Shown here piece by piece: positions 3 to 10,792 of a stretch of DNA of 18,409 nucleotides. The position numbers and the translations under genes were made by a program. The notes beneath the pieces were generated by a model. The model searched no databases and was not told the DNA's origin. It saw only the letters and a program-made list of their open reading frames with translations. The DNA lies in contig JAEOTX010000012.1 in the NCBI GenBank assembly GCA_016839605.1, positions 1 through 18,409 of the forward strand. The letters run 5' to 3'. This stretch comes from Candidatus Thorarchaeota archaeon (GTDB lineage: Archaea; Asgardarchaeota; Thorarchaeia; Thorarchaeales; Thorarchaeaceae). Every line of letters starts with the position of its first letter. Position 1 is the stretch's first letter.

Positions 3-3000
3 ACTCAGGTCCTCAAGGGTGAAAGTGAGTCAACAACGTCATCTGAAGAGGAAACAGAAACCGAATCATCCGGTGCATCTGAAGAGATGACCAATGAGAG
101 CGAAGCATCTGAGGAAGCGAATGCCTCTTCCCCTAGTGAACAACAACAACAAGAGGACCACGAGACCTCGCAGCAATCAGAGGAGTCAGTTGCCCAACGA
201 ATGCCAGAAATACAGCAGGGCTACTCCGCAGAAACAGAGCCTGACCGGGGAACCCATACAGAGGGAAGCGAAGTCACTGAGTCAAGACGACGGAGTGTCG
301 AGCAGTCCACACTTGACGAATTCGAGGATGCAGAAGCCTCAGGTGATGCTTCGGAAGACTTGAGAACTGAGTCAACAGACTCTAGTGAAGAGTCGGAGGA
401 GCGCCGTGTCGAACGTGTCGAAGAAATCGAGCGCAATATTGAGGATACAGAAAACCCCGACGCACAAGAAGCCACTGAACCTACCGCAGATACAGATAAA
501 GCTGAGGGATATGCAGACACAAACAGCGAGGTCTCTCATGATAGTCATGATGAAGCGGGAGAGCTTGCAGATTGTGAAGGTTCTGAGGACACGATGCATT
601 CCGCGGAAGGGGGCGAATCTTATGAAACTGGCGAGGAACAGCAGGAATCCGTGTCTGAAATCGAGGCTACACAAGAGCCTGAACACGAGAGTCATTCCCG
701 AGAAGAGGGAGCGACTGAGGCTCAAGAAGCTGAGGAGGTCGTTGTGGATTCAGAGGAGGACCAAACCGAGTCCCTGGAAGACGAGAGTGAGACTGAGGAG
801 TGGCGGATGCCGTCGATGCTTCCAGAGAACTACTCGTTCGACATATTCCCAGAAACGGAGGAGGAGAACTTCAGACCTGCACTCCTGTCTGAAACTATAC
901 AAGGAATCTGGGAGAGCCTCAGCGATGAGGAACGGGAAGAGATCAGACCTTTCCTACGGAAGGGAATCGAGAGCGAGGAAGACCTCGAGGAGGAGCTTGA
1001 GAGATCGCCAAGTGTGAAGTATTCTTCTGACTTTGAGGAGGACCTGGAGGATGCACGTGCCTACCTCCTACTTTCGGCGGAGGATCGTGCCCTCACGGAA
1101 ACTCCCCGACTCTTGGAGCGGCTGATGAATCTTGAGGCTGAGCGCCGCTGGGCTGAATTGCTCTTGACACAGTCTGTTGAGAGCATCATTGATGACTCCG
1201 CATCAATCGAGTCTGAGGCTGAACCGGTGCCGGGGTCTAGAGGAAAGCCGCGCGAGATTCGGTTGCACGAGCCTTCCATCGCAGGTCATGCTGTCCGGGA
1301 TATCAGGACAGTGAGAAGACTACTCAAGAAGCACTACCCAGGCATGCTTGAGCGTTCTGATATCGACAGTCTGTTGAAGCAAGTCGAGGACCATCTGCGA
1401 CTCATTGCGAGACTCTCTGGAAGAACAACAGTGTCCCATAGAGAGCTAGCTATTATCTCAAAGGAACTCGGAATCAAGAAGGGCAACTCGTATGACTGGG
1501 TGTTGAGAGGTCAGGTGCCCAACTTCTACAAGATTCTGGAACAGGCGCTGTCAAAGGAAGCCGCCGCCGCAGTTTTGGATAAGATTCGAGAGTTACTAGG
1601 GTCCATCACAAGCTGGACCGATGTTGAAGCTCGACTTGAGGAGATGTATCCTTGTGGCGAGTACAAGCAGGGATTCAGGTACGATGTCCGCAAACAGAGG
1701 GTCAAGGACTTCTTCAAGTATATCGCTGAATTAGCAAAGAGTGGAACGACGAAGGGCATCGCCCGGCGGGCTGGAATCAAGATTAGGGTTGCTCGGGCTT
1801 TCTCCGATGGGGAAATCCCCTGGCTGATTCGGCATGTGCTACCTGTGGGCTCAATGAGCGAGCTCATGACCAAGGTACAATTCAAGATACCACAAATCCG
1901 CAGGATTGATTTGCGGTCGTTGCAGGAGTTTCATGATATTGTGGATCAACACTTCCCGTGGCTATTGGAGCGGAAGGACTACAAGAGACTCATAAGGCAA
2001 CTCGAGGCCTTCTTTAGACTTGTAAGACGATATCGTGGTGTGGAGTTCTACGCTCCGAGTGACATCTACAAACTGGAGAAGGAGCTTGGTGTTTCTCGAG
2101 AAACTATCAGGGCTTGGCTTATTGGAGAAGCCCTTCCCATGGTCTTTGATATGTTAGACAAGGGGCTCTCAATTGAGGAGGCTGAGGAGAAGTTCAGGGA
2201 GATCACTTCGAGGCTTAACGGAGTTGAGTCATGGTCTGAATTGAGGCGGCGTACGAAGACGTTCTATCCACAAGAGGACACAGAGCAGTTGCCAACCTAT
2301 CAAAAAGATGTGCTTCATGCAAAGGCTTTCTTCAAGTTGTTGACTGCATTAAGGAAGGGTGGCCTGCATACTGATATTGCAGCGAGGGCAGGTCTTAGCG
2401 TCGCCAAAGTCAAAGGGTTGCTCCATGGAGAGGGATTTCCATGGCTTGTTAGGACGGCAACAATGATTCCTGCTGAAAAGCCGAGAAGGGGATACCGGTG
2501 GTTGCCCCTCATAATGGATACCCAAAAGCGAATGAGGGCTTGGATTCAGGTTCCTAAAATGATTAGAGGACTCAATGAAGTCGTTTCTCTGCAGAAGCAA
2601 CTCATGCCCCTAAAAGGAAAATCGATGAAGAATTGGAAGAAACGGTTTGGCGATTTGGAGTTTGTTGAAGCCTTTATGTATCTTCTAGGAGCTTTTACAT
2701 CTGATGGAACAGTTGGTCGAAAGGAAGGAGTATCTACACGACTAGGCATTTCCTTGAGTAAAAAATACCCATGGAGCGAGGCTTTTGGTGAGCTGTTCTG
2801 CTACTGTCTTGGGATTTTGGGGATAAGAGCAAAGAGAGAAAAAGATACAGTGGATGAAAATGGTAATGAAAAGGCAAATTGGAGTAGTAATCATTCATCA
2901 CTTCCAATTTGGATCATAAGGTCTGCTTTGGGACTTAGGAGAGGGCAGGCAAAAGGCAAACAATCTATCAGTGCAGATTGGATTCTCAAGATGTCAAAAG

Positions 3001-3437
3001 GAAACCGAATCTCTTTCGTGCAGGGTCTCGCTGATGGTGATGGTCATGCCTCAGTGAGAGGTCTATCTGCAGGTATTGCGACAAAAACTAACAAGGAATT
3101 CATTCTCAAGCTCCTTGCCTCTTTAGGGATTGAATCAACTTCATATTCTAATGGAATCGTGTTCAACAAGAAGGATTCCCTGCGAAACGCATCACAACTG
3201 CCCTTCTTTCGTGCTGCTGATGGCCGTCAATTCCGTCTAGAGGAAATCATCCGAATGATTGATTCAATGGATTGGGCATCGGTTTCTGCCGACGAACGTG
3301 TTCTCATTATGAATCTACATTCCGAGGGCTGCACAGCTGGTGAGATTAGCAGCATCTTATGGGAGAAGTTAGGAAGAGCAAGGCGTACTCCCACAATAAA
3401 AAAGGCGATTCGCGACCACATTGGCGATTCAGCATAA
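3..3437 (+). CDS. Large multidomain LAGLIDADG endonuclease-family protein (acidic low-complexity N-terminus, 4 HTH-containing repeats, double LAGLIDADG, C-terminal HTH); 5'-partial
   Basis: The frame of ORF 87..3437 is open back to position 3 (TQVLKGESESTTSSEEETETESSGASEE then M), so the true start probably lies upstream of the window. LAGLIDADG-type helices FMYLLGAFTSDG (2673-2708) and SFVQGLADGDG (3012-3044) are about 112 aa apart, both keeping the acidic residue before the last Gly. C-terminal LIMNLHSEGCTAGEISSILWEKLGRARRTPTIKKAI is HTH-like. Confidence 0.8.
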   Translation, partial: TQVLKGESESTTSSEEETETESSGASEEMTNESEASEEANASSPSEQQQQEDHETSQQSEESVAQRMPEIQQGYSAETEPDRGTHTEGSEVTESRRRSVEQSTLDEFEDAEASGDASEDLRTESTDSSEESEERRVERVEEIERNIEDTENPDAQEATEPTADTDKAEGYADTNSEVSHDSHDEAGELADCEGSEDTMHSAEGGESYETGEEQQESVSEIEATQEPEHESHSREEGATEAQEAEEVVVDSEEDQTESLEDESETEEWRMPSMLPENYSFDIFPETEEENFRPALLSETIQGIWESLSDEEREEIRPFLRKGIESEEDLEEELERSPSVKYSSDFEEDLEDARAYLLLSAEDRALTETPRLLERLMNLEAERRWAELLLTQSVESIIDDSASIESEAEPVPGSRGKPREIRLHEPSIAGHAVRDIRTVRRLLKKHYPGMLERSDIDSLLKQVEDHLRLIARLSGRTTVSHRELAIISKELGIKKGNSYDWVLRGQVPNFYKILEQALSKEAAAAVLDKIRELLGSITSWTDVEARLEEMYPCGEYKQGFRYDVRKQRVKDFFKYIAELAKSGTTKGIARRAGIKIRVARAFSDGEIPWLIRHVLPVGSMSELMTKVQFKIPQIRRIDLRSLQEFHDIVDQHFPWLLERKDYKRLIRQLEAFFRLVRRYRGVEFYAPSDIYKLEKELGVSRETIRAWLIGEALPMVFDMLDKGLSIEEAEEKFREITSRLNGVESWSELRRRTKTFYPQEDTEQLPTYQKDVLHAKAFFKLLTALRKGGLHTDIAARAGLSVAKVKGLLHGEGFPWLVRTATMIPAEKPRRGYRWLPLIMDTQKRMRAWIQVPKMIRGLNEVVSLQKQLMPLKGKSMKNWKKRFGDLEFVEAFMYLLGAFTSDGTVGRKEGVSTRLGISLSKKYPWSEAFGELFCYCLGILGIRAKREKDTVDENGNEKANWSSNHSSLPIWIIRSALGLRRGQAKGKQSISADWILKMSKGNRISFVQGLADGDGHASVRGLSAGIATKTNKEFILKLLASLGIESTSYSNGIVFNKKDSLRNASQLPFFRAADGRQFRLEEIIRMIDSMDWASVSADERVLIMNLHSEGCTAGEISSILWEKLGRARRTPTIKKAIRDHIGDSA
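1293..2460 (+). repeat. Internal protein repeats: four ~103-aa modules arranged as a tandem 206-aa (618-nt) unit, A-B-A'-B'
   Basis: Module starts at 1293 (VRDIRTV), 1605 (ITSWTDV), 1911 (LRSLQEF) and 2223 (VESWSEL). HYP/HFP (1332/1950), MYP/FYP (1644/2262) and KELG/KELG (1461/2079) are each exactly 618 nt apart. IARRAGI..GEIPWL aligns with IAARAGL..GEGFPWL. Confidence 0.85.
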
Positions 3438-3456: not shown

Positions 3457-3499
3457 TAGTCATGACGAATTATCTCAGAGGCGGGTAGCGTCATGACTA
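3457..3499 (+). promoter_or_regulatory. 11-bp perfect inverted repeat whose right arm contains the carboxyltransferase start codon
   Basis: TAGTCATGACG (3457-3467) and CGTCATGACTA (3489-3499), 21-nt loop; the ATG at 3493 is inside the right arm. Function is inferred. Confidence 0.45.
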
Positions 3500-5040
3500 A
3501 TGAGAAATTTGAGAAGCTCAAAAAAATGCGTGAGAAAGCCAAACTAGCAGGCGGGGAGGAACGCATAGCGAAACAGCATGAACGTGGAAAGTATACCGCG
3601 AGAGAACGCATTGAAAAACTTCTAGATCCAGGTTCATTTGTTGAGATTGATGAATTTGTGATAAGTCGAATTTCGGATTTTGGGATGGATAAGAAACGAA
3701 TTCTAGGTGATGGAGTAATAACCGGTTATGGTGCTATAAATGGTCGAAAAATCTTCATCTTCAGCCAGGATTTCACCGTATTCGGAGGGTCGCTGTCAGA
3801 GAAGTACGGGGATAAGATCTGCAAGGTCATGGATTTAGCTATGCAGGCTGGAGCTCCTGTAATAGGCTTGAACGATTCAGGCGGAGCTCGTATTCAAGAA
3901 GGAATTCTGGCGCTGGCGTCATACTCCCACATTTTCGAACGCAATACCTGGGCCAGCGGTGTCATTCCCCAACTATCCGCAATTTTAGGTCCTTGTGCCG
4001 GCGGAGCAGTCTACAGTCCAGCTGTGACCGATTTCACTCTGATGGTGAAAGGCACATCACACATGTTCATCACTGGCCCTGAAGTCATTAAGACAGTCAC
4101 AGGGGAGGAAGTCACATTTGAGGAACTCGGAGGTGCAATGACACATGCGTCAATCAGTGGAGTGTCACATTTCGCTAGCGAGGATGAAGACCACTGCTTT
4201 GAACAAATAAGGATGCTGCTTAGTTACATTCCGAGTAACAATCTAGAGGACCCGCCAAGAGTGATGAGCGACTGCTCACCTGATGATGTCGATGAATCAA
4301 TCGATGAGGTAGTCCCTGATGACCCTAACAAGCCCTACGACATGAGGGATGTCGTCACAAAGCTTGCGGACAATGGGGATTTCTTTGAAGTTCATGAGCA
4401 TTGGGCTAAGAACATGATTGTGGGTTTTACCCGCTTCAATGGATACTCAGTCGGTATAGTAGGAAACCAGCCTGCTCATCTAGCTGGAACACTCGATATA
4501 GACGCGTCGGACAAGTGTGCCAGGTTTGTCAGATTCTGTGATGCATTCAACATCCCGATTATTACATTCATGGATGTGCCCGGATTCCTTCCAGGAACGG
4601 CACAGGAATGGGGCGGCATAATTAGGCATGGCGCGAAGATTCTGTATGCCTTTGCAGAAGCGACTGTTCCGAAGATTACAATTATCACAAGGAAAGGCTA
4701 TGGTGGAGCCTATGATGTGATGTCATCAAGGCACATTGATGCAGACCTTGTTTATGCTTGGCCTGGATCAGAGATTGCAGTAATGGGGCCCGATGGCGCT
4801 ATCAACATCATATTTCGAAAAGAGATTGAGAAGGCAAAAGACAAAGAGAAGAAACGTGCTGAGTTAGTGAGGGAATATCGGGAAAAATTCGCCAACCCAT
4901 ACGTTGCTGCAGGGCTTGGCTATATCGATAAGGTAATCTTCCCACATGAAACCCGACAGTTGATCTGCAGTGGACTTGACGTTTTGGCGAGTAAACGAAA
5001 AAGCAGACCCCCCAAGAAGCATGGGAATATACCTCTTTAA
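3493..5040 (+). CDS. pccB: Acyl-CoA carboxylase carboxyltransferase subunit (propionyl-CoA carboxylase beta / methylmalonyl-CoA decarboxylase alpha family), full length
   Basis: 515 aa with [84 protein letters not shown] and C-terminal [10 protein letters not shown]. pccB and mmdA cannot be told apart from sequence alone. Confidence 0.95.
3922..5040 (+). repeat. First copy of a 1.12-kb imperfect direct repeat (partner 7423-8541; the last 42 bp recur at 9304-9345)
   Basis: Colinear with 7423-8541 at a constant offset of 3501 nt with no indels. The longest exact match I noticed is 20 bp, GCACAGGAATGGGGCGGCAT (4600-4619 and 8101-8120). Confidence 0.95.
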
Positions 5041-5073
5041 TTCGTTTCAGACATCAATTCTGGAGTTGACCAA

Positions 5074-6078
5074 ATGAATCGCGTGGAGAGATTCATAGAA
5101 TCACTCAGTTCAAACGTGAAGTCCTATAGAATTAAGAGGAAGCTCGAAAGAGCATATGACCCTGACATTGATGCCAATCAGTTGGCCAAATACCTCATTA
5201 TGAGAGTGGAGCAATCAACCAAGGAATCACTTGAGGTTTCTAGCACTAGCTTTGAAAGCACTGGGCGTGCTCTTAGATATCTTCGAAACATGGTTCCAGT
5301 TGCTCTATCTTCCCTAACAGAAAATGAAATGGAACAGGCAATTGTTCAATATGGGCAACCATTGATTCGAGTATACGAATCATTGAATCTATTGGATGAT
5401 GCCCTCCTACTTGCGATGGCTGGTCGTTATACATCATCGTTAACAATTCTGCGTTCTGCTCTTGAATCTATGATTGTTGGTGGTTTCTATCATGGGTTAG
5501 CAAACTCGGATCTAAGAAACAAGGCGTCAGAACTACTTGGCCGTAGACGAAGATGGCCATGGTCTATGCTCGAACTTATTGCCAATCTTACAAACTCCTA
5601 CGAAAATGTAAGTGGTATATCTCTGGAATCAATGATTGAGAATGAGCTAGTAAATCAAGATCCGCCACTGACTCCGCCTACTCTTCGATTTATGTTGGAT
5701 GTTGTGATTCATATGTATGAACCTACAATTCTGCCTAATCCCCTCCAACAGATTCATGAAGAGCTTTACGAAAATCTCTCTGTTTATGCCCATGTTATGA
5801 GCGATGGCATGACCATTGTGCAACATGGCTTGGATGAAGAGCCTGAATTTGATAGTGGAAAAGTATCACTTGACTTAATCCACAAATTCCAAGGTTATTT
5901 CATAGGTACCCTTGACATGGTTGGTGCGCTGTACTATACTTTTACTTCTGACCTGCACGCATCTCCCCGAGTTAGGCAATTAATTATCCAGCAGGACTCA
6001 CAAGTGCATATGCATCGCGAGGGGCTGGACCTTACTTTTGATGCTCTCCGATCTGCAATCGGTCTACGACGAGTTTAA
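5074..6078 (+). CDS. Hypothetical all-alpha protein, HEPN-like (DUF5677-type motifs)
   Basis: 334-aa ORF with GGAG RBS at 5062-5065. Motifs GRYTSSLTILRSALE (R127, E131) and LYENLSVYAH (Y232, S236, H240) match the G-x-Y...LR-x-x-LE and Y-x-x-LS-x-x-x-H pattern I associate with DUF5677/HEPN-fold proteins. The ORF is well supported; the family call is moderate. Confidence 0.55.
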   Translation: MNRVERFIESLSSNVKSYRIKRKLERAYDPDIDANQLAKYLIMRVEQSTKESLEVSSTSFESTGRALRYLRNMVPVALSSLTENEMEQAIVQYGQPLIRVYESLNLLDDALLLAMAGRYTSSLTILRSALESMIVGGFYHGLANSDLRNKASELLGRRRRWPWSMLELIANLTNSYENVSGISLESMIENELVNQDPPLTPPTLRFMLDVVIHMYEPTILPNPLQQIHEELYENLSVYAHVMSDGMTIVQHGLDEEPEFDSGKVSLDLIHKFQGYFIGTLDMVGALYYTFTSDLHASPRVRQLIIQQDSQVHMHREGLDLTFDALRSAIGLRRV

Positions 6079-6088
6079 GCAAACTCGT

Positions 6089-7366
6089 TTAATCATTCGA
6101 AACTGGGGGAGGACATCCTCCTTGAAGCTGGATTTTCTCCCAATCTACTTCCCAAAAAGGGGCTCCTCGAACTAGCAGGGCGCTTTTCGTGGCAATGGCT
6201 CTATTTATTGTCTTGATAGTCTGGATATATCGCTCACCTTCCAGCCTTTCCAAGTCATCTGTGAATCCTACTACTATCATATCTAGGTTCTTCTTAATGT
6301 AGTCAAAGTCGAATTCATCAGATTCGAATCTTCTTCCTCTGCAAAGCCCTCTGACTTTAGACGATTTCCCCTTGAAATCGAATCTAAGTCCCATTTTAAA
6401 AACATCCCAGAAACAGCCTCTCCATTTGCGCACATCACAAAAGATTGTGCCTCTAACTGATGACATTTCGACTCGACACAGGTCTTTCTCATACCTTATT
6501 TCTACTGACTCGCTGATAGCCCAATCAACAGGTCGCTTTTCGGGGAATAGGGTTCCCTCAACGAATCTTGGGATATTACTGGAAACATTCCTCGAGGGGC
6601 GCTTTCGAAAACGGTCAGGAAATGGCATTCCCTTCTTCTGAAGTAAATCTGATGAATATGCTCTGGCGAGAATATCTTCTCGATTGGTAAATGCAATTTC
6701 AGAAAGACGTGAAAGCACATCTTCTGTCAATAAATCCTCTGGGAGCAAGTTGAGCGCTTCAATGGTTCCAAACCTAACCGAATTCGATTTATCTCTTAAC
6801 AGATCCAAAATAGGCAACTTGGCTTTGTTAGCAAGCTTTGCAAGAATAATCCCCAATTTGTATGAAGATTTGGTTTTTCGAATAACATCTAGAAGGACTG
6901 GCAAAAACTCAATTCTTGGCTTCTCTTCAAAAGCTTTAATGAAACCATTAACCAGTCTGTTATTCTTTGTTTTCTTAAGCAGTGACTTGATGTTCTTGAA
7001 TGAATCTTCTCCACTAATCATCATCAGTGCTGATAGCATCTCCTTGGTATGAAAGCAGACCTTCTTCTTGCAAGCTTCAAGCTTCGCAGTCAATCGGGGG
7101 ACCACATAGGGACTATTGAGGATACCAAGGGTGCGAATCAATAATGGATTGGGAGACCTATAATGAACAACGTTTCCTCCTTCTCCCAAAGCAATATCAA
7201 CAAGAAAGCCAAGTTTCGTAGGATATTGAGTAGCCCATTGAATTGCTGATTCAATAATCTCCTCCTGTTTGCGAGCTCTCTGTTCTCCAGTTAATGCATA
7301 CAACTCACGTTTCTTTGAGTCAATTCTCAATAATTTAGATTCTGCATCGTCTAATCCAGGGCTCAT
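6089..7366 (-). CDS. HEAT/PBS-like repeat protein with a possible C-terminal PC4/YdbC-like domain
   Basis: Long ORF; the ATG at 7366 (MSPGLDD) is preferred over the TTG at 7393 because a TATA box sits 28-33 nt upstream of it. HEAT-like segments LIRTLGILNSPYVVPRL and KLPILDLLRDKSNSVRFGTIEALNLL. Confidence 0.6.
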   Translation of the reverse strand: MSPGLDDAESKLLRIDSKKRELYALTGEQRARKQEEIIESAIQWATQYPTKLGFLVDIALGEGGNVVHYRSPNPLLIRTLGILNSPYVVPRLTAKLEACKKKVCFHTKEMLSALMMISGEDSFKNIKSLLKKTKNNRLVNGFIKAFEEKPRIEFLPVLLDVIRKTKSSYKLGIILAKLANKAKLPILDLLRDKSNSVRFGTIEALNLLPEDLLTEDVLSRLSEIAFTNREDILARAYSSDLLQKKGMPFPDRFRKRPSRNVSSNIPRFVEGTLFPEKRPVDWAISESVEIRYEKDLCRVEMSSVRGTIFCDVRKWRGCFWDVFKMGLRFDFKGKSSKVRGLCRGRRFESDEFDFDYIKKNLDMIVVGFTDDLERLEGERYIQTIKTINRAIATKSALLVRGAPFWEVDWEKIQLQGGCPPPVSND

Positions 7367-7392
7367 TCTACTAGCCAGAAGCAAAATTCGCA

Positions 7393-7400
7393 ATTTAAAT
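7393..7400 (-). promoter_or_regulatory. Archaeal TATA box (ATTTAAAT) for the HEAT-repeat gene
   Basis: TTTAAA at 7394-7399, 28-33 nt upstream of the ATG at 7366, typical spacing for a leaderless archaeal transcript. The element is palindromic. Confidence 0.5.
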
Positions 7401-7422
7401 CTGAGCTAACGCGAACCGTTGC

Positions 7423-8541
7423 TACTGCAATATTTTCAGACTGAATACCTGGGCGAGCGGAGTGATTCCGCAGATCTCTGCGATAATGGGTCCCTGCGCA
7501 GGCGGGGCAGTATACAGTCCAGCAGTCACTGATTTCACATTGATGGTCAAAGGCACCTCTCACATGTTTATCACTGGACCCGAAGTTATCAAGACTGTCA
7601 CGGGTGAAGAGGTCACCTTCGAAGAGCTTGGAGGCGCAATGACCCACAATAGCGTGAGTGGTGTTGCCCAGTTCGCCAGTGAGGATGAGGACCACTGCTT
7701 CGAGCAGATACGAAAGCTCCTCAGCTACATGCCTAGCAACAACTTGGAGGACCCTCCCAGAGTGATGAGTGACTGTTCACCTGATGATTTCGATGAGTCG
7801 ATTGACGACATCGTGCCTGAGGATCCTAACAAACCCTACGACATGCGTGATGTTGTTGCTAAAATTGTCGACAATGGAGAGTTCTTAGAGGTTCATGAGC
7901 ATTGGGCGAAGAACATGATGGTGGGCTTTGCTCGGGTGGATGGAAGGTCAATAGGCATTGTTGGCAATCAGCCTGCTCACTTAGCAGGCACTCTAGACAT
8001 CAACGCGTCAGACAAGTGCTCTCGATTCGTCAGGTTCTGTGATGCCTTCAATATCCCGGTGGTCACATTCATGGACGTCCCGGGTTATCTACCCGGAACT
8101 GCACAGGAATGGGGCGGCATCATTCGTCACGGTGCAAAGATTCTCTATGCGTTTGCAGAGGCTACAGTTCCCAAGATCACCATAATCACTCGGAAAGGCT
8201 ACGGCGGCGCCTTCGATGTTATGTCTTCTCGGCACATAGGAGCGGACCTGGTGTATGCCTGGCCTACTGCAGAGATTGCTGTAATGGGTCCTGACGGAGC
8301 AATAAACATCATCTTCCGCAAGGAGATATCTGCGGCAAAGAACAAGGAGAAGAAGCGTGCCGAGTTAGTGAAGGAGTACCGAGAGAGGTTCGCTAATCCC
8401 TATATTGCTGCAGGCTTAGGGTATATCGACAAGGTCATCTTTCCGCACGAAACGAGATCATTGATTTGCAAAGGCCTTGATGTCCTAGCGAGCAAGAGAC
8501 AGAGTAGGCCTCCAAAGAAGCATGGCAATATGCCCCAGTAA
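7423..8541 (+). pseudogene. pccB: 5'-truncated second copy of the carboxyltransferase gene (codons ~144-515)
   Basis: Homology starts at [17 protein letters not shown] (copy 1: [17 protein letters not shown]). An in-frame TGA lies at 7402, and the ORF-track GTG start at 7462 is just internal Val157. Hand alignment gives 43 differences in 359 aa (88% identity), with no stops or frameshifts. The N-terminal region including [10 protein letters not shown] is missing. Confidence 0.9.
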
Positions 8542-8550
8542 TTAGGACGA

Positions 8551-8862
8551 CTAAAGAGGGGGCATCGCAGGAATCTGAATGCGGCCCGCAAACAAGAATG
8601 CAAGCATAAGTATGATGAATGCAAAGATAATAATCATAATCAACGAATTCAGAGAATCCTGAATAGCTTGCACTCTCTCTTCAATCTCATTTGCCCGTTG
8701 GAATTGCCTCATGAAAACACAATGTCCCCCGAGCTCTACACCGTCTTCATCGATTAACCTCACCCACTGCATGCATTCATTCTTCTTACACACGTCTTGC
8801 TGGAAAGGGCAGTCAAACCTCTCCTCTTCAGACAGTATGTTAGGATATTCTTTCGACGACAT
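8551..8862 (-). CDS. Small Cys4-motif protein with short coiled coil and C-terminal transmembrane anchor
   Basis: The ATG at 8862 is preceded by GGAGGT (8870-8875, 7-nt spacing), giving 103 aa. Contains CPFQQDVCKKNECMQW...GGHC, heptad segment IEERVQAIQDSLNSL and hydrophobic IMIIIFAFIILMLAFLFA. Confidence 0.7.
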   Translation of the reverse strand: MSSKEYPNILSEEERFDCPFQQDVCKKNECMQWVRLIDEDGVELGGHCVFMRQFQRANEIEERVQAIQDSLNSLIMIIIFAFIILMLAFLFAGRIQIPAMPPL

Positions 8863-9303
8863 TTCACTTACCTCCATTAAGACTCATCAGTCAGATATCT
8901 TTTACAATACTTCATTTCCCTACATGTTCCTGAAGGCATCATTCTGGCTTAATGCCAGATGGGCTTCTACTGTACAAATCACTCATTGATGGTCTATAGG
9001 CCTCGAATGACAATAGTGAGATGCCAGTATACCTAAAGCTAGAAACCATGAGTCAGAGGATTGGAATCGTCGATTTTGAGATTGGTGCGGCGGCAACCCT
9101 AGTGCTCATTCACGCCCAGGATGCCATGGTCATCTTTCGTAATGCGGTTTCTAGAGGTTCTATTAAAGCTCCCTCAATTCCATTTGGTTTCAGGCTAGAT
9201 AACCTTGAACTGCTATTCCGTATATGCTTTGTGAACCTCAATTATTTCAACGTGAGGGCCGTTCACTGCCAGGTAAGGGGTATATTACCAAGTCAGTAGG
9301 GGA

Positions 9304-9345
9304 CAGAGCAGACCTCCCAAGAAACATGGTAACATGCCGCAGTGA
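9304..9345 (+). pseudogene. pccB: 42-bp third remnant of the carboxyltransferase 3' end, including its stop codon
   Basis: CAG AGC AGA CCT CCC AAG AAA CAT GGT AAC ATG CCG CAG TGA translates to [13 protein letters not shown], identical in protein to the end of copy 2 (8500-8541). 34/42 nt are identical and all 8 differences are silent. Not in the ORF track. Confidence 0.9.
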
Positions 9346-9421
9346 TGAGTTGAATCTCGGGACTCAAAATTGGTGAATTTTAGGCCTATCTATCTACTTC
9401 GAACATTGATGTTTCTTGGGA

Positions 9422-10792
9422 TTAGTTGCTATTGGATAGATTTGTCCATTTGACACCCACTTTTTTCAAGGCATACTCAATTTCACTCAAATAATCACCA
9501 TATACAACTAGCCAGTGAAATCCTTTCATTTCATGTAACAGTTTCTTCCAATCACCCTCGATCTCTATGTCTAATTGAGTGCGGCATATTTGAAGAGTTG
9601 GATTGTCGATTATTCTTCCTCTGAATCCAATCCATTCGTTTCCACTAAACGAAGGATCGATAACAGTAACTACTTGACCTTTCTTCATCTTTACTTGTGG
9701 TGCTGCTCCATAATCAGATTCAAAGTGAGTGAGAATTTCCACTCTTTCAAGGTTTGAGCCATCCATTCTACGCGGTGCTGTGCAATGTGCAACAGTGACT
9801 TGACCTTTATGAGGTAAGGTAGGGTCGACGAAGAAAACAGGTTTGCTTGAAATAAAGTGCAAAAGAATTCCTGCCGGAATAGCGACAAAGTCGGATTCAC
9901 AGAATGCTAGGTATCCAGAATCATTGAGTAAACAGATGGGTAAGCAAGCAGTCGTTTCAGATATTGGCATAACAATTGACATACATCCTGCAATTGTAAG
10001 GATGTGTGCGTTATCTTCTTTCAATAAGTCTTTGAAAACTCGTTCAAGTAGAAATGCATTGATTACGAAATTCTTGTCTGTTTTAAGCTCGACTTTACTA
10101 TTTGACAAATAGTTCTCTGCATCTTCTTGAGCCATTTCAATTGCATCGGTATCTGCCTTCAATACCTCGATTCTATTCGCTAACTCCTGATAGGAAACAG
10201 TTTCTATTTGAAAATCCCATGTTTCATTTGCTTTCTGTACAGCTTCCTCCCCAATACCCCATCCTCCAGGTGCTCCTATCGAAATGACTTTTGCACCAAT
10301 TGCATATTTCAGCCCTACTAGAGCCCTTAATTTCTGGAAGAGTTCTTTGTAATCATCAACTACAATATCCTCAACAATGACAGGTTGCAGGATCTCATCA
10401 GATACACTTTTTCTTAAGAACCGTGGATGGATTATTTCGTACCAGAGATAGTCTTTCCTGAGGAAGAATATTATTGGCATATCATATGACGACAACTGTT
10501 CTAAGGGCTCAATCGAGTCAATTTCCTGCACACCAGCTGCGTATACTAAAATTACATCTGCATTGATGTCTAGATTTCTTATATCTTCAACAGTTTTGGT
10601 CTTGCTTAAAGGCTGAATTCGTAATGGGAACCTAGCCTTATTTTGTAATTCTAGTAATTCATCCTTAATTCTCTTAATCTCGCTGTCTGCATCAGCTTCA
10701 GATTGAATCCCTCCCCAAGGTCTCCAACTAGTTTGCTCCTTCTTCTCGTAAACCCCATATAGAAAGATTGGTTTTACTTGAAAATCGAACAT
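9422..10792 (-). CDS. L-fucose/L-arabinose isomerase-family protein (COG2407-like sugar isomerase)
   Basis: 456 aa with AFCESD (metal-binding E-x-D), VAHCTAP, THFESDYG, CRTQL and GFHWLVVYGDY, characteristic of fucose-isomerase-related proteins. Substrate unknown. Confidence 0.8.
   Translation of the reverse strand: MFDFQVKPIFLYGVYEKKEQTSWRPWGGIQSEADADSEIKRIKDELLELQNKARFPLRIQPLSKTKTVEDIRNLDINADVILVYAAGVQEIDSIEPLEQLSSYDMPIIFFLRKDYLWYEIIHPRFLRKSVSDEILQPVIVEDIVVDDYKELFQKLRALVGLKYAIGAKVISIGAPGGWGIGEEAVQKANETWDFQIETVSYQELANRIEVLKADTDAIEMAQEDAENYLSNSKVELKTDKNFVINAFLLERVFKDLLKEDNAHILTIAGCMSIVMPISETTACLPICLLNDSGYLAFCESDFVAIPAGILLHFISSKPVFFVDPTLPHKGQVTVAHCTAPRRMDGSNLERVEILTHFESDYGAAPQVKMKKGQVVTVIDPSFSGNEWIGFRGRIIDNPTLQICRTQLDIEIEGDWKKLLHEMKGFHWLVVYGDYLSEIEYALKKVGVKWTNLSNSN

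Follow-up and report, generated by a model that had tools for sequence, protein, structure and literature searches.

A contig from a Candidatus Thorarchaeota archaeon (JAEOTX010000012.1, assembly GCA_016839605.1) raises a simple question: why does the gene for a core metabolic enzyme end three times on the same strand, each time behind different DNA? The window, i.e., the whole stretch of 18,409 nucleotides analyzed here, is an entire 18.4-kb contig from a metagenome-assembled genome (MAG) that is 80% complete and comprises 259 contigs. The only intact gene of the three copies (copy 1, positions 3493-5040, plus strand) encodes an acyl-CoA carboxylase beta subunit/methylmalonyl-CoA carboxyltransferase (pccB) of 515 aa ending in IPL, assigned by Pfam (Carboxyl_trans, 6.9e-199) and NCBIfam (mmdA subfamily). 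Copy 2 (7423-8541, plus strand) is a resident-type pccB with an open frame from codon Y144 to the stop; it ends in MPQ and its first 143 codons are missing. The third copy is a relic of 51 nt (9295-9345, plus strand). Between copies 1 and 2 lies cargo A (5041-7422), with ORFs at 5074-6078 (plus strand, 334 aa) and 6089-7393 (minus strand, 434 aa, HEAT-like), and between copy 2 and the relic lies cargo B (8542-9294), with an ORF at 8551-8877 (minus strand, 108 aa) and a doubtful one at 9021-9299 (plus strand, 92 aa). On the left, the window starts with a giant LAGLIDADG-domain ORF (87-3437, at least 1,116 aa; sole Pfam hit LAGLIDADG_3 at aa 976-1022), whose last 44 aa are conserved, together with the following spacer, upstream of pccB in genome G011. 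On the right, the relic is followed by the native intergenic spacer between pccB and its neighbor (9346-9421) and by the convergent neighbor gene itself (9422-10792, minus strand, 456 aa, no family), which forms the ancestral right flank; genes for a histidine kinase, an epimerase, a 3-hydroxyacyl-CoA dehydrogenase, a TPP enzyme and an MFS transporter come next. The relic is the stranded 3′ end of the original resident pccB, probably displaced serially via recombination anchored in the conserved gene.

The terminal codons of the relic at 9304-9345 (CAG AGC AGA CCT CCC AAG AAA CAT GGT AAC ATG CCG CAG TGA) translate as [13 protein letters not shown] and are identical to the end of copy 2 (8500-8541) at 34 of 42 bases. 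The 8 differences are without exception silent, being 7 third-position changes plus the stop (TGA vs. TAA), just as a sequence-only reading of this DNA had claimed. The end of copy 1 matches at 31 of 42 positions, and the top unrelated 42-mer on either strand of the window at just 23. In blastn searches against the orthologs of the congeners G009 and G014, the alignment begins at 9295 and extends across the spacer to 9414-9421 (81-83% identity, E 1e-25 to 1e-32). Because pccB homology begins at 9295, the relic comprises codons 500-515 and the stop ([16 protein letters not shown]), and the faint echo of SKR in the upstream SRG, to which the same reading had drawn attention, is genuine homology: the first codons are AGT AGG GGA, compared with AGT AAG AGG in the ortholog, with 2 replacements within these three codons. 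The relic is without a start codon, and its frame is closed by a stop 10 codons upstream. Unconstrained substitutions were simulated in the 42-nt terminus, success being defined as all changes silent and the stop kept. With 8 substitutions, 0 of 40,000 trials succeeded (the proportion was 0.002 with 4 substitutions and 0.01 with 3), which excludes neutral decay of a local duplicate as the source of the pattern, in line with the earlier contention. Both stranded pieces, the relic and copy 2, differ only silently from their counterparts, which implies that they evolved as the termini of functional genes in different lineages and that too little time has passed since they were stranded for decay to set in.

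The position of the relic identifies which of these genes it belonged to. In the congeners G009, G014, and G011, a single pccB directly adjoins the same 456-aa gene and kinase; the neighbor protein is 90-92% identical to that of G009 and G014 and 75% identical to that of G011. Region 9295-9421 aligns with the pccB end and the intergenic spacer of G009 and G014, and the distance from the pccB stop to the stop of the neighbor is 76 nt after the relic and 78 nt in G009. The sequences that follow copies 1 and 2, in contrast to the one that follows the relic, do not align to the post-pccB spacer of G009, G014, or G011. The relic terminus itself is closest to G009 (37/42), followed by G014 and G005 (35/42 each) and copy 2 (34/42), so that an ortholog from another genome does match the 42-mer better than the neighboring copy. 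Given this proximity to the G009 end and the native spacer and neighbor, the relic is the tail of the original gene of this site. The idea that it was the end of a third functional allele is borne out by the silent pattern as well as by this context. It is the oldest copy, still in place, rather than an additional arrival, and copy 1 is the newest.

The two longer copies, which are 76% identical, have different affinities. According to EF-2 and RpoB identities, the window genome groups with G001, G005, G015, G002, G011, G009, and G014, while G004, G006, G007, G010, G016, G003, and G012 are more distant. Copy 2 shares 95-100% aa identity per segment with G009 and G014, and in a maximum-likelihood tree it forms a clade with the metagenomic proteins P0001 and P0098 within G009/G014/G005 (support 100/100). 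Only 2 private changes at otherwise invariant sites were found in copy 2 (F298L and L515Q), a number within the range of working orthologs, which suggests that it has not been idle for long. Copy 1 groups in the same tree with G004/G006/G010, to which it is 90-91% identical at the aa level over its full length, vs. 85% to G009/G014. Its identity to G004/G006/G010 is 82-97% per segment, aa 1-143 included, and its similarity to G009/G014 is clearly lower in most segments, with the strongest gap over aa 1-143. Since copy 1 is foreign-type along its entire length, it is the newcomer, a xenolog; the sequence-only reading had suspected this of the currently expressed 3′ end, and the conclusion can now be extended to the whole gene. 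A model in which copy 1 combines a host 5′ part with an element 3′ part was rejected because aa 1-143 are likewise foreign-type. At the nucleotide level, identity between the copy 1-type genes of G000 and G016 is as low as 76%, which argues against one recent shared transfer.

The same earlier reading had left undecided whether MPQ or IPL is the native ending, and the answer depends on the scale considered. Family-wide, IPL prevails: it is found in 116 of the best 120 database hits and in 12 of the 14 orthologs that were read, so that the observation named in that reading as evidence against the newcomer polarity, relatives ending in IPL throughout, very nearly holds for the family. MPQ occurs in 3 of the 120 hits (P0001, P0002, and the more distant P0098), and the 2 remaining orthologs, those of G009 and G005, end in MPL. 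P0001 is an intact metagenomic protein of 516 aa from other assemblies that is 99.7% identical to copy 2, with a G009-type N-terminus and the C-terminal residues HGNMPQ. The intact MPQ protein, together with MPQ in P0002 and P0098 and MPL in G009 and G005, argues that MPQ is native to the species-level clade. Thus, IPL is the norm in the family, whereas a small clade to which this species belongs has MPQ as its functional native ending. A metagenome scan with both versions of the terminal 21-mer returned 18 chance matches, none of them in pccB.

These data suggest the following sequence of events. DNA from a related lineage would enter by recombination anchored in the highly conserved body of pccB. 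The first import would bring an MPQ-ending 3′ part of pccB together with the downstream genes of the donor (8542-9294), and its far end would join within the last 50 bases of the resident gene, so that pccB would stay whole and the old tail would be stranded downstream. A second, larger import would then deliver a complete foreign-type pccB (copy 1) along with cargo 5041-7422, cutting the resident gene at codon 143/144 and leaving copy 2 behind. Cassettes flanked by two pieces of pccB could subsequently spread by ordinary homologous recombination. The joining mechanism that agrees best with the anatomy would consist of a homology anchor and an illegitimate join, with no site-specific recombinase. 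The anatomy at 9294/9295 comprises a conserved gene upstream, an abrupt junction, and the absence of the original codons 1-499. The end of copy 2 and the relic share no identical stretch longer than 5 nt, which means that the recombination itself left no trace. The relic has no function of its own. Its worth lies in marking a recurrent hotspot of serial displacement and in documenting, datably and in order, how foreign genes were piled up behind a single conserved metabolic gene of an Asgard archaeon. Should the mechanism be ordinary homologous recombination with the conserved gene as an arm, it would constitute a simple route of interspecies gene flow, in the archaeal group closest to eukaryotes, and would explain the xenologous replacement of a core enzyme. 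For annotators, truncated ORFs that look intact, such as copy 2, are displaced pieces and not paralogs.

Stranded ends are common behind pccB across the family, and the 3′ end of this gene is a recurrent site of gene accretion. Same-strand 3′ fragments of pccB, either near a full copy or in strings, were found in no fewer than 13 of the 86 family genomes. The richest array found (G087:C10, L053, 93000-110015) has six within ~15 kb, starting at ~aa 168, 313, 392, 434, 471, and 472, in states from pristine to frameshifted. G078 has a full pccB with three fragments, G063, G066, and G089 have three each (a full copy and two fragments, or three fragments), and further 3′ fragments occur in G003, G016, G045, G049, G065, G068, and G086. 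Nearly all reach the stop, and their starts vary from ~aa 141 to 500; lengths range from 51 to ~1,120 nt, the relic of the window being the shortest. In every upstream copy, the frame continues through the conserved terminal peptide to a proper stop. Among the displaced termini, about half keep the exact conserved peptide and the others have 1-5 replacements or frameshifts, as expected from relics of differing ages that form a time series of decay. However, recombination with intact alleles could also have restored old fragments to a pristine state, in which case the reading of such fragments as recent would be weakened. In G003, G063, and G068, one block occurs in collinear order (76-83% identity), composed of a 3′ part of pccB, a pair of cargo genes, and the following fragment. 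The genes between fragments are of assorted accessory types, namely PIN, nucleotidyltransferase, GNAT, wHTH, an AAA_21 ATPase pair, kinases, beta-helix proteins, and a subtilase; no tyrosine or serine recombinase is among the best 25 of the 87 Pfam families in this cargo. In G016:C110 (L035, 503-2399), an AAA_15/AAA_21 ATPase (462 aa) and a 208-aa partner lie between two gene copies. This pair looks like a defense-type system and occupies the same slot as the ORFs at 5074-7393 of the window.

The cargo ORFs of the window match no Pfam, PHROG, NCBIfam, or PADLOC family, save for a weak HEAT_2 match in cargo A, for which the Atlas offers leads only (DUF5677-like and HEAT repeat). Neither ORF of cargo A is seen downstream of pccB in any relative examined. 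The 108-aa ORF of cargo B has relatives with 29-38% identity in six family genomes, none on the pccB-bearing contigs there, and the 92-aa ORF (9021-9299) has no credible relative. The cargo DNA is absent from the close relatives G001, G002, G005, G013, and G015.

Other processes can leave repeated gene ends, and a local origin is one of them. The repeats are short, direct, and near each other, and the MAG is incomplete and fragmented, so that a tandem or target-site duplication of the gene tail that has since drifted, or an artifact of metagenome assembly, might be envisaged. This is scarcely credible: no simulated set of 8 substitutions was entirely silent, and the relic is nearer to the ortholog of another species (G009) than to copy 2. 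As for an artifact, the junctions lie in unique sequence with no shared k-mer for an assembler jump, and the same architecture recurs in many independent assemblies, including contigs of 110 kb and 471 kb. The repeats could instead be attL/attR remnants of integrase-driven elements (virus, plasmid, or island) that inserted at the 3′ end of pccB with a replacement tail and whose integrases have since been lost. The arrays have the matching geometry, in which same-strand partial copies each restore the gene end, with the newest beside the intact gene and cargo between them; classes of fragment starts recur (~aa 141-147, 435-439, 457-466, and 477-486), and tRNA islands with strings of partial tRNAs offer a published parallel (bioRxiv 10.1101/2020.12.28.424599). 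However, no ORF of the window has a Pfam match to a tyrosine or serine recombinase, and none was found on the array contigs that were checked. PF00589 was undetected in four of five genomes tested (G000, G003, G063, and G087) and matched only non-array contigs in the fifth, G078, in a search (E ≤ 0.01) that matched all 14 control genomes, although archaeal integrases can escape this profile. PF00239 matches were likewise confined to contigs without arrays. (One of these four PF00589-free genomes is 97% complete, and not even a Xer-like recombinase was picked up in any of them.) Furthermore, the repeats differ widely in length and have many starts, with no identical core of the kind required for strand exchange, and no piece of pccB was found on IMG/VR viral contigs with copy 2, a full-length alignment, and a C-terminal alignment as queries (few patterns). 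Remnants of att sites therefore appear unlikely.

The breaks in resident-type genes are more difficult to accommodate, as they cluster at codons 141-147. The junction of copy 2, read at the nucleotide level (7417-7431), falls between S143 and Y144, and the same break is seen in G016 (L035, L048), G075 (L059), and metagenomic proteins. The 3′ fragments start at Y144 in the window, G016, and the metagenomic proteins, at aa 146 or 147 elsewhere, and, in G066, at aa 141; S143 is the last residue of the 5′ fragments of G016 and G075. The insert-side DNA at these breaks is unrelated from case to case. Scattered breakpoints would be expected from illegitimate joins, and the clustering thus counts against the favored mechanism. 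In G016, the 5′ and 3′ halves of the broken gene abut to the nucleotide, indicating that the resident gene of this genome was split by a simple insertion that included a full gene of the copy 1 type; since the 5′ part is kept, simple insertion fits this case better than homology-facilitated illegitimate recombination. The clustering hints at a site-preferring agent for the junction of copy 2. Alternatively, the junction may be an old one whose gene side has been refreshed by recombination with intact alleles. L102 of G056 is a further case of a broken resident-type gene, with the break at S143|Y144 or no more than three codons from it. G048 was considered as a further break at codon 143 and rejected, because the two contig ends overlap and the break belongs to the assembly only. 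An intein at the codon-144 junction was also rejected: the frame upstream of 7423 contains stops, and there are no splicing motifs.

Could a nuclease be this agent? In a selfish module, the LAGLIDADG protein (87-3437) would cut resident pccB near codons 143/144 and the linked copy 1, which differs at that site, would rescue the cell, with the relic as a by-product of an earlier, unrelated event. The S143|Y144 breaks that recur with unrelated insert-side DNA are compatible with this, as is the difference between copy 1 (SYSHIFERN) and the resident type (SYCNIFRLN) at this position, and in G016 (G016:C175) the copy 1-type gene is preceded by a C-terminal piece of the LAGLIDADG protein with 52% identity. 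On the other hand, G016, G066, and G048 have no LAGLIDADG_3 match, G004 and G006 have the copy 1-type allele and no LAGLIDADG protein, and starts at aa 141, 146, and 147 are unlike a single clean cut. Nothing ties the LAGLIDADG protein, a putative nuclease here, to the relic. This explanation is very improbable. A broader version would regard the carboxyltransferase gene as the dedicated landing pad of a recombinase-free cassette system, in which cassettes of accessory genes would each travel with a piece of pccB that acts as their portable arm of homology. An agent with a preferred site, possibly the adjacent LAGLIDADG protein, would break the resident gene at 143/144, and the linked resistant full-length allele would rescue it, as in a natural "cleave and rescue." This proposal is improbable. 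Serial displacement of the resident 3′ end remains the preferred reading of the relic.

The arrays may be compared both with the "C-terminal displacement" of Rhs and T6SS loci and with att remnants. Displacement of C-termini and orphan 3′ modules in Rhs, CDI, and T6SS effector loci were reportedly described by Jackson in 2009 and by Poole in 2011. As in those loci, new 3′ parts at pccB would arrive via recombination for which the conserved upstream portion of the gene serves as the anchor, and old 3′ ends accumulate downstream as same-strand strings with accompanying genes, next to one full-length gene. Here, however, the gene encodes a housekeeping metabolic enzyme in an Asgard archaeon, and unlike the toxins, all displaced tips encode the same carboxyltransferase terminus, with heterogeneous cargo rather than cognate immunity genes. 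For C-terminal displacement in Rhs/T6SS arrays, homology-facilitated illegitimate recombination has been proposed (Kirchberger, 2017, PMC5361080). Experimental demonstrations of this process come from transformable bacteria only (de Vries and Wackernagel, 2002; Prudhomme, 2002, via PMC5361080). It would share with the pccB locus one homologous anchor and one illegitimate join, the trapping of foreign genes beside a conserved gene, and the loss of the recipient segment in between, features that at pccB are deduced from anatomy; the recurring breakpoints, in contrast, would be unexpected from it.

Elements with integrases, such as tycheposons, form additive islands at the 3′ ends of tRNAs or genes (bioRxiv 10.1101/2020.12.28.424599). 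There, as at pccB, the incoming partial copy keeps the proximal conserved gene intact, and older insertions can be recognized from strings of partial copies, the most recent of which lies closest to the gene. Unlike in such islands, no integrase was found at pccB, the repeats are long, divergent, and of many lengths with no common core, and the target is a protein gene of which up to 1.1 kb is duplicated. Integron cassette arrays differ in similar respects, as neither an integrase nor a motif shared after the stops or before the junctions was found here. A paper on mobile elements of Asgard archaea (PMC8813620) deals with aloposons, which target tRNAs, and contains nothing resembling the pccB 3′ arrays.

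Several minor observations concern the flanks. Contig G000:C198 (2,388 nt) carries a gene that is found upstream of pccB in G004, G006, G009, G010, and G012, and its end stops ~1.2 kb short of the expected start of the resident pccB; this contig probably represents the left side of the copy 1 insert, the left junction of which is not assembled in this MAG. The neighbor gene (9422-10792) is 91-92% identical to its counterparts in G009 and G014 at the DNA level and only 90-92% at the protein level, and the DNA of the flanking kinase is 77-78% identical. This ratio of DNA to protein identity suggests, as far as the sequences tell, either a recent exchange or a weak constraint on the protein. In G005 (L043, G005:C59, 1887-3737), a 542-aa ORF substitutes for the 456-aa neighbor and no pccB fragment remains; the first 66 nt past the pccB stop of G005 resemble those past the stop of copy 1 (77%; the first 64 nt in another alignment).
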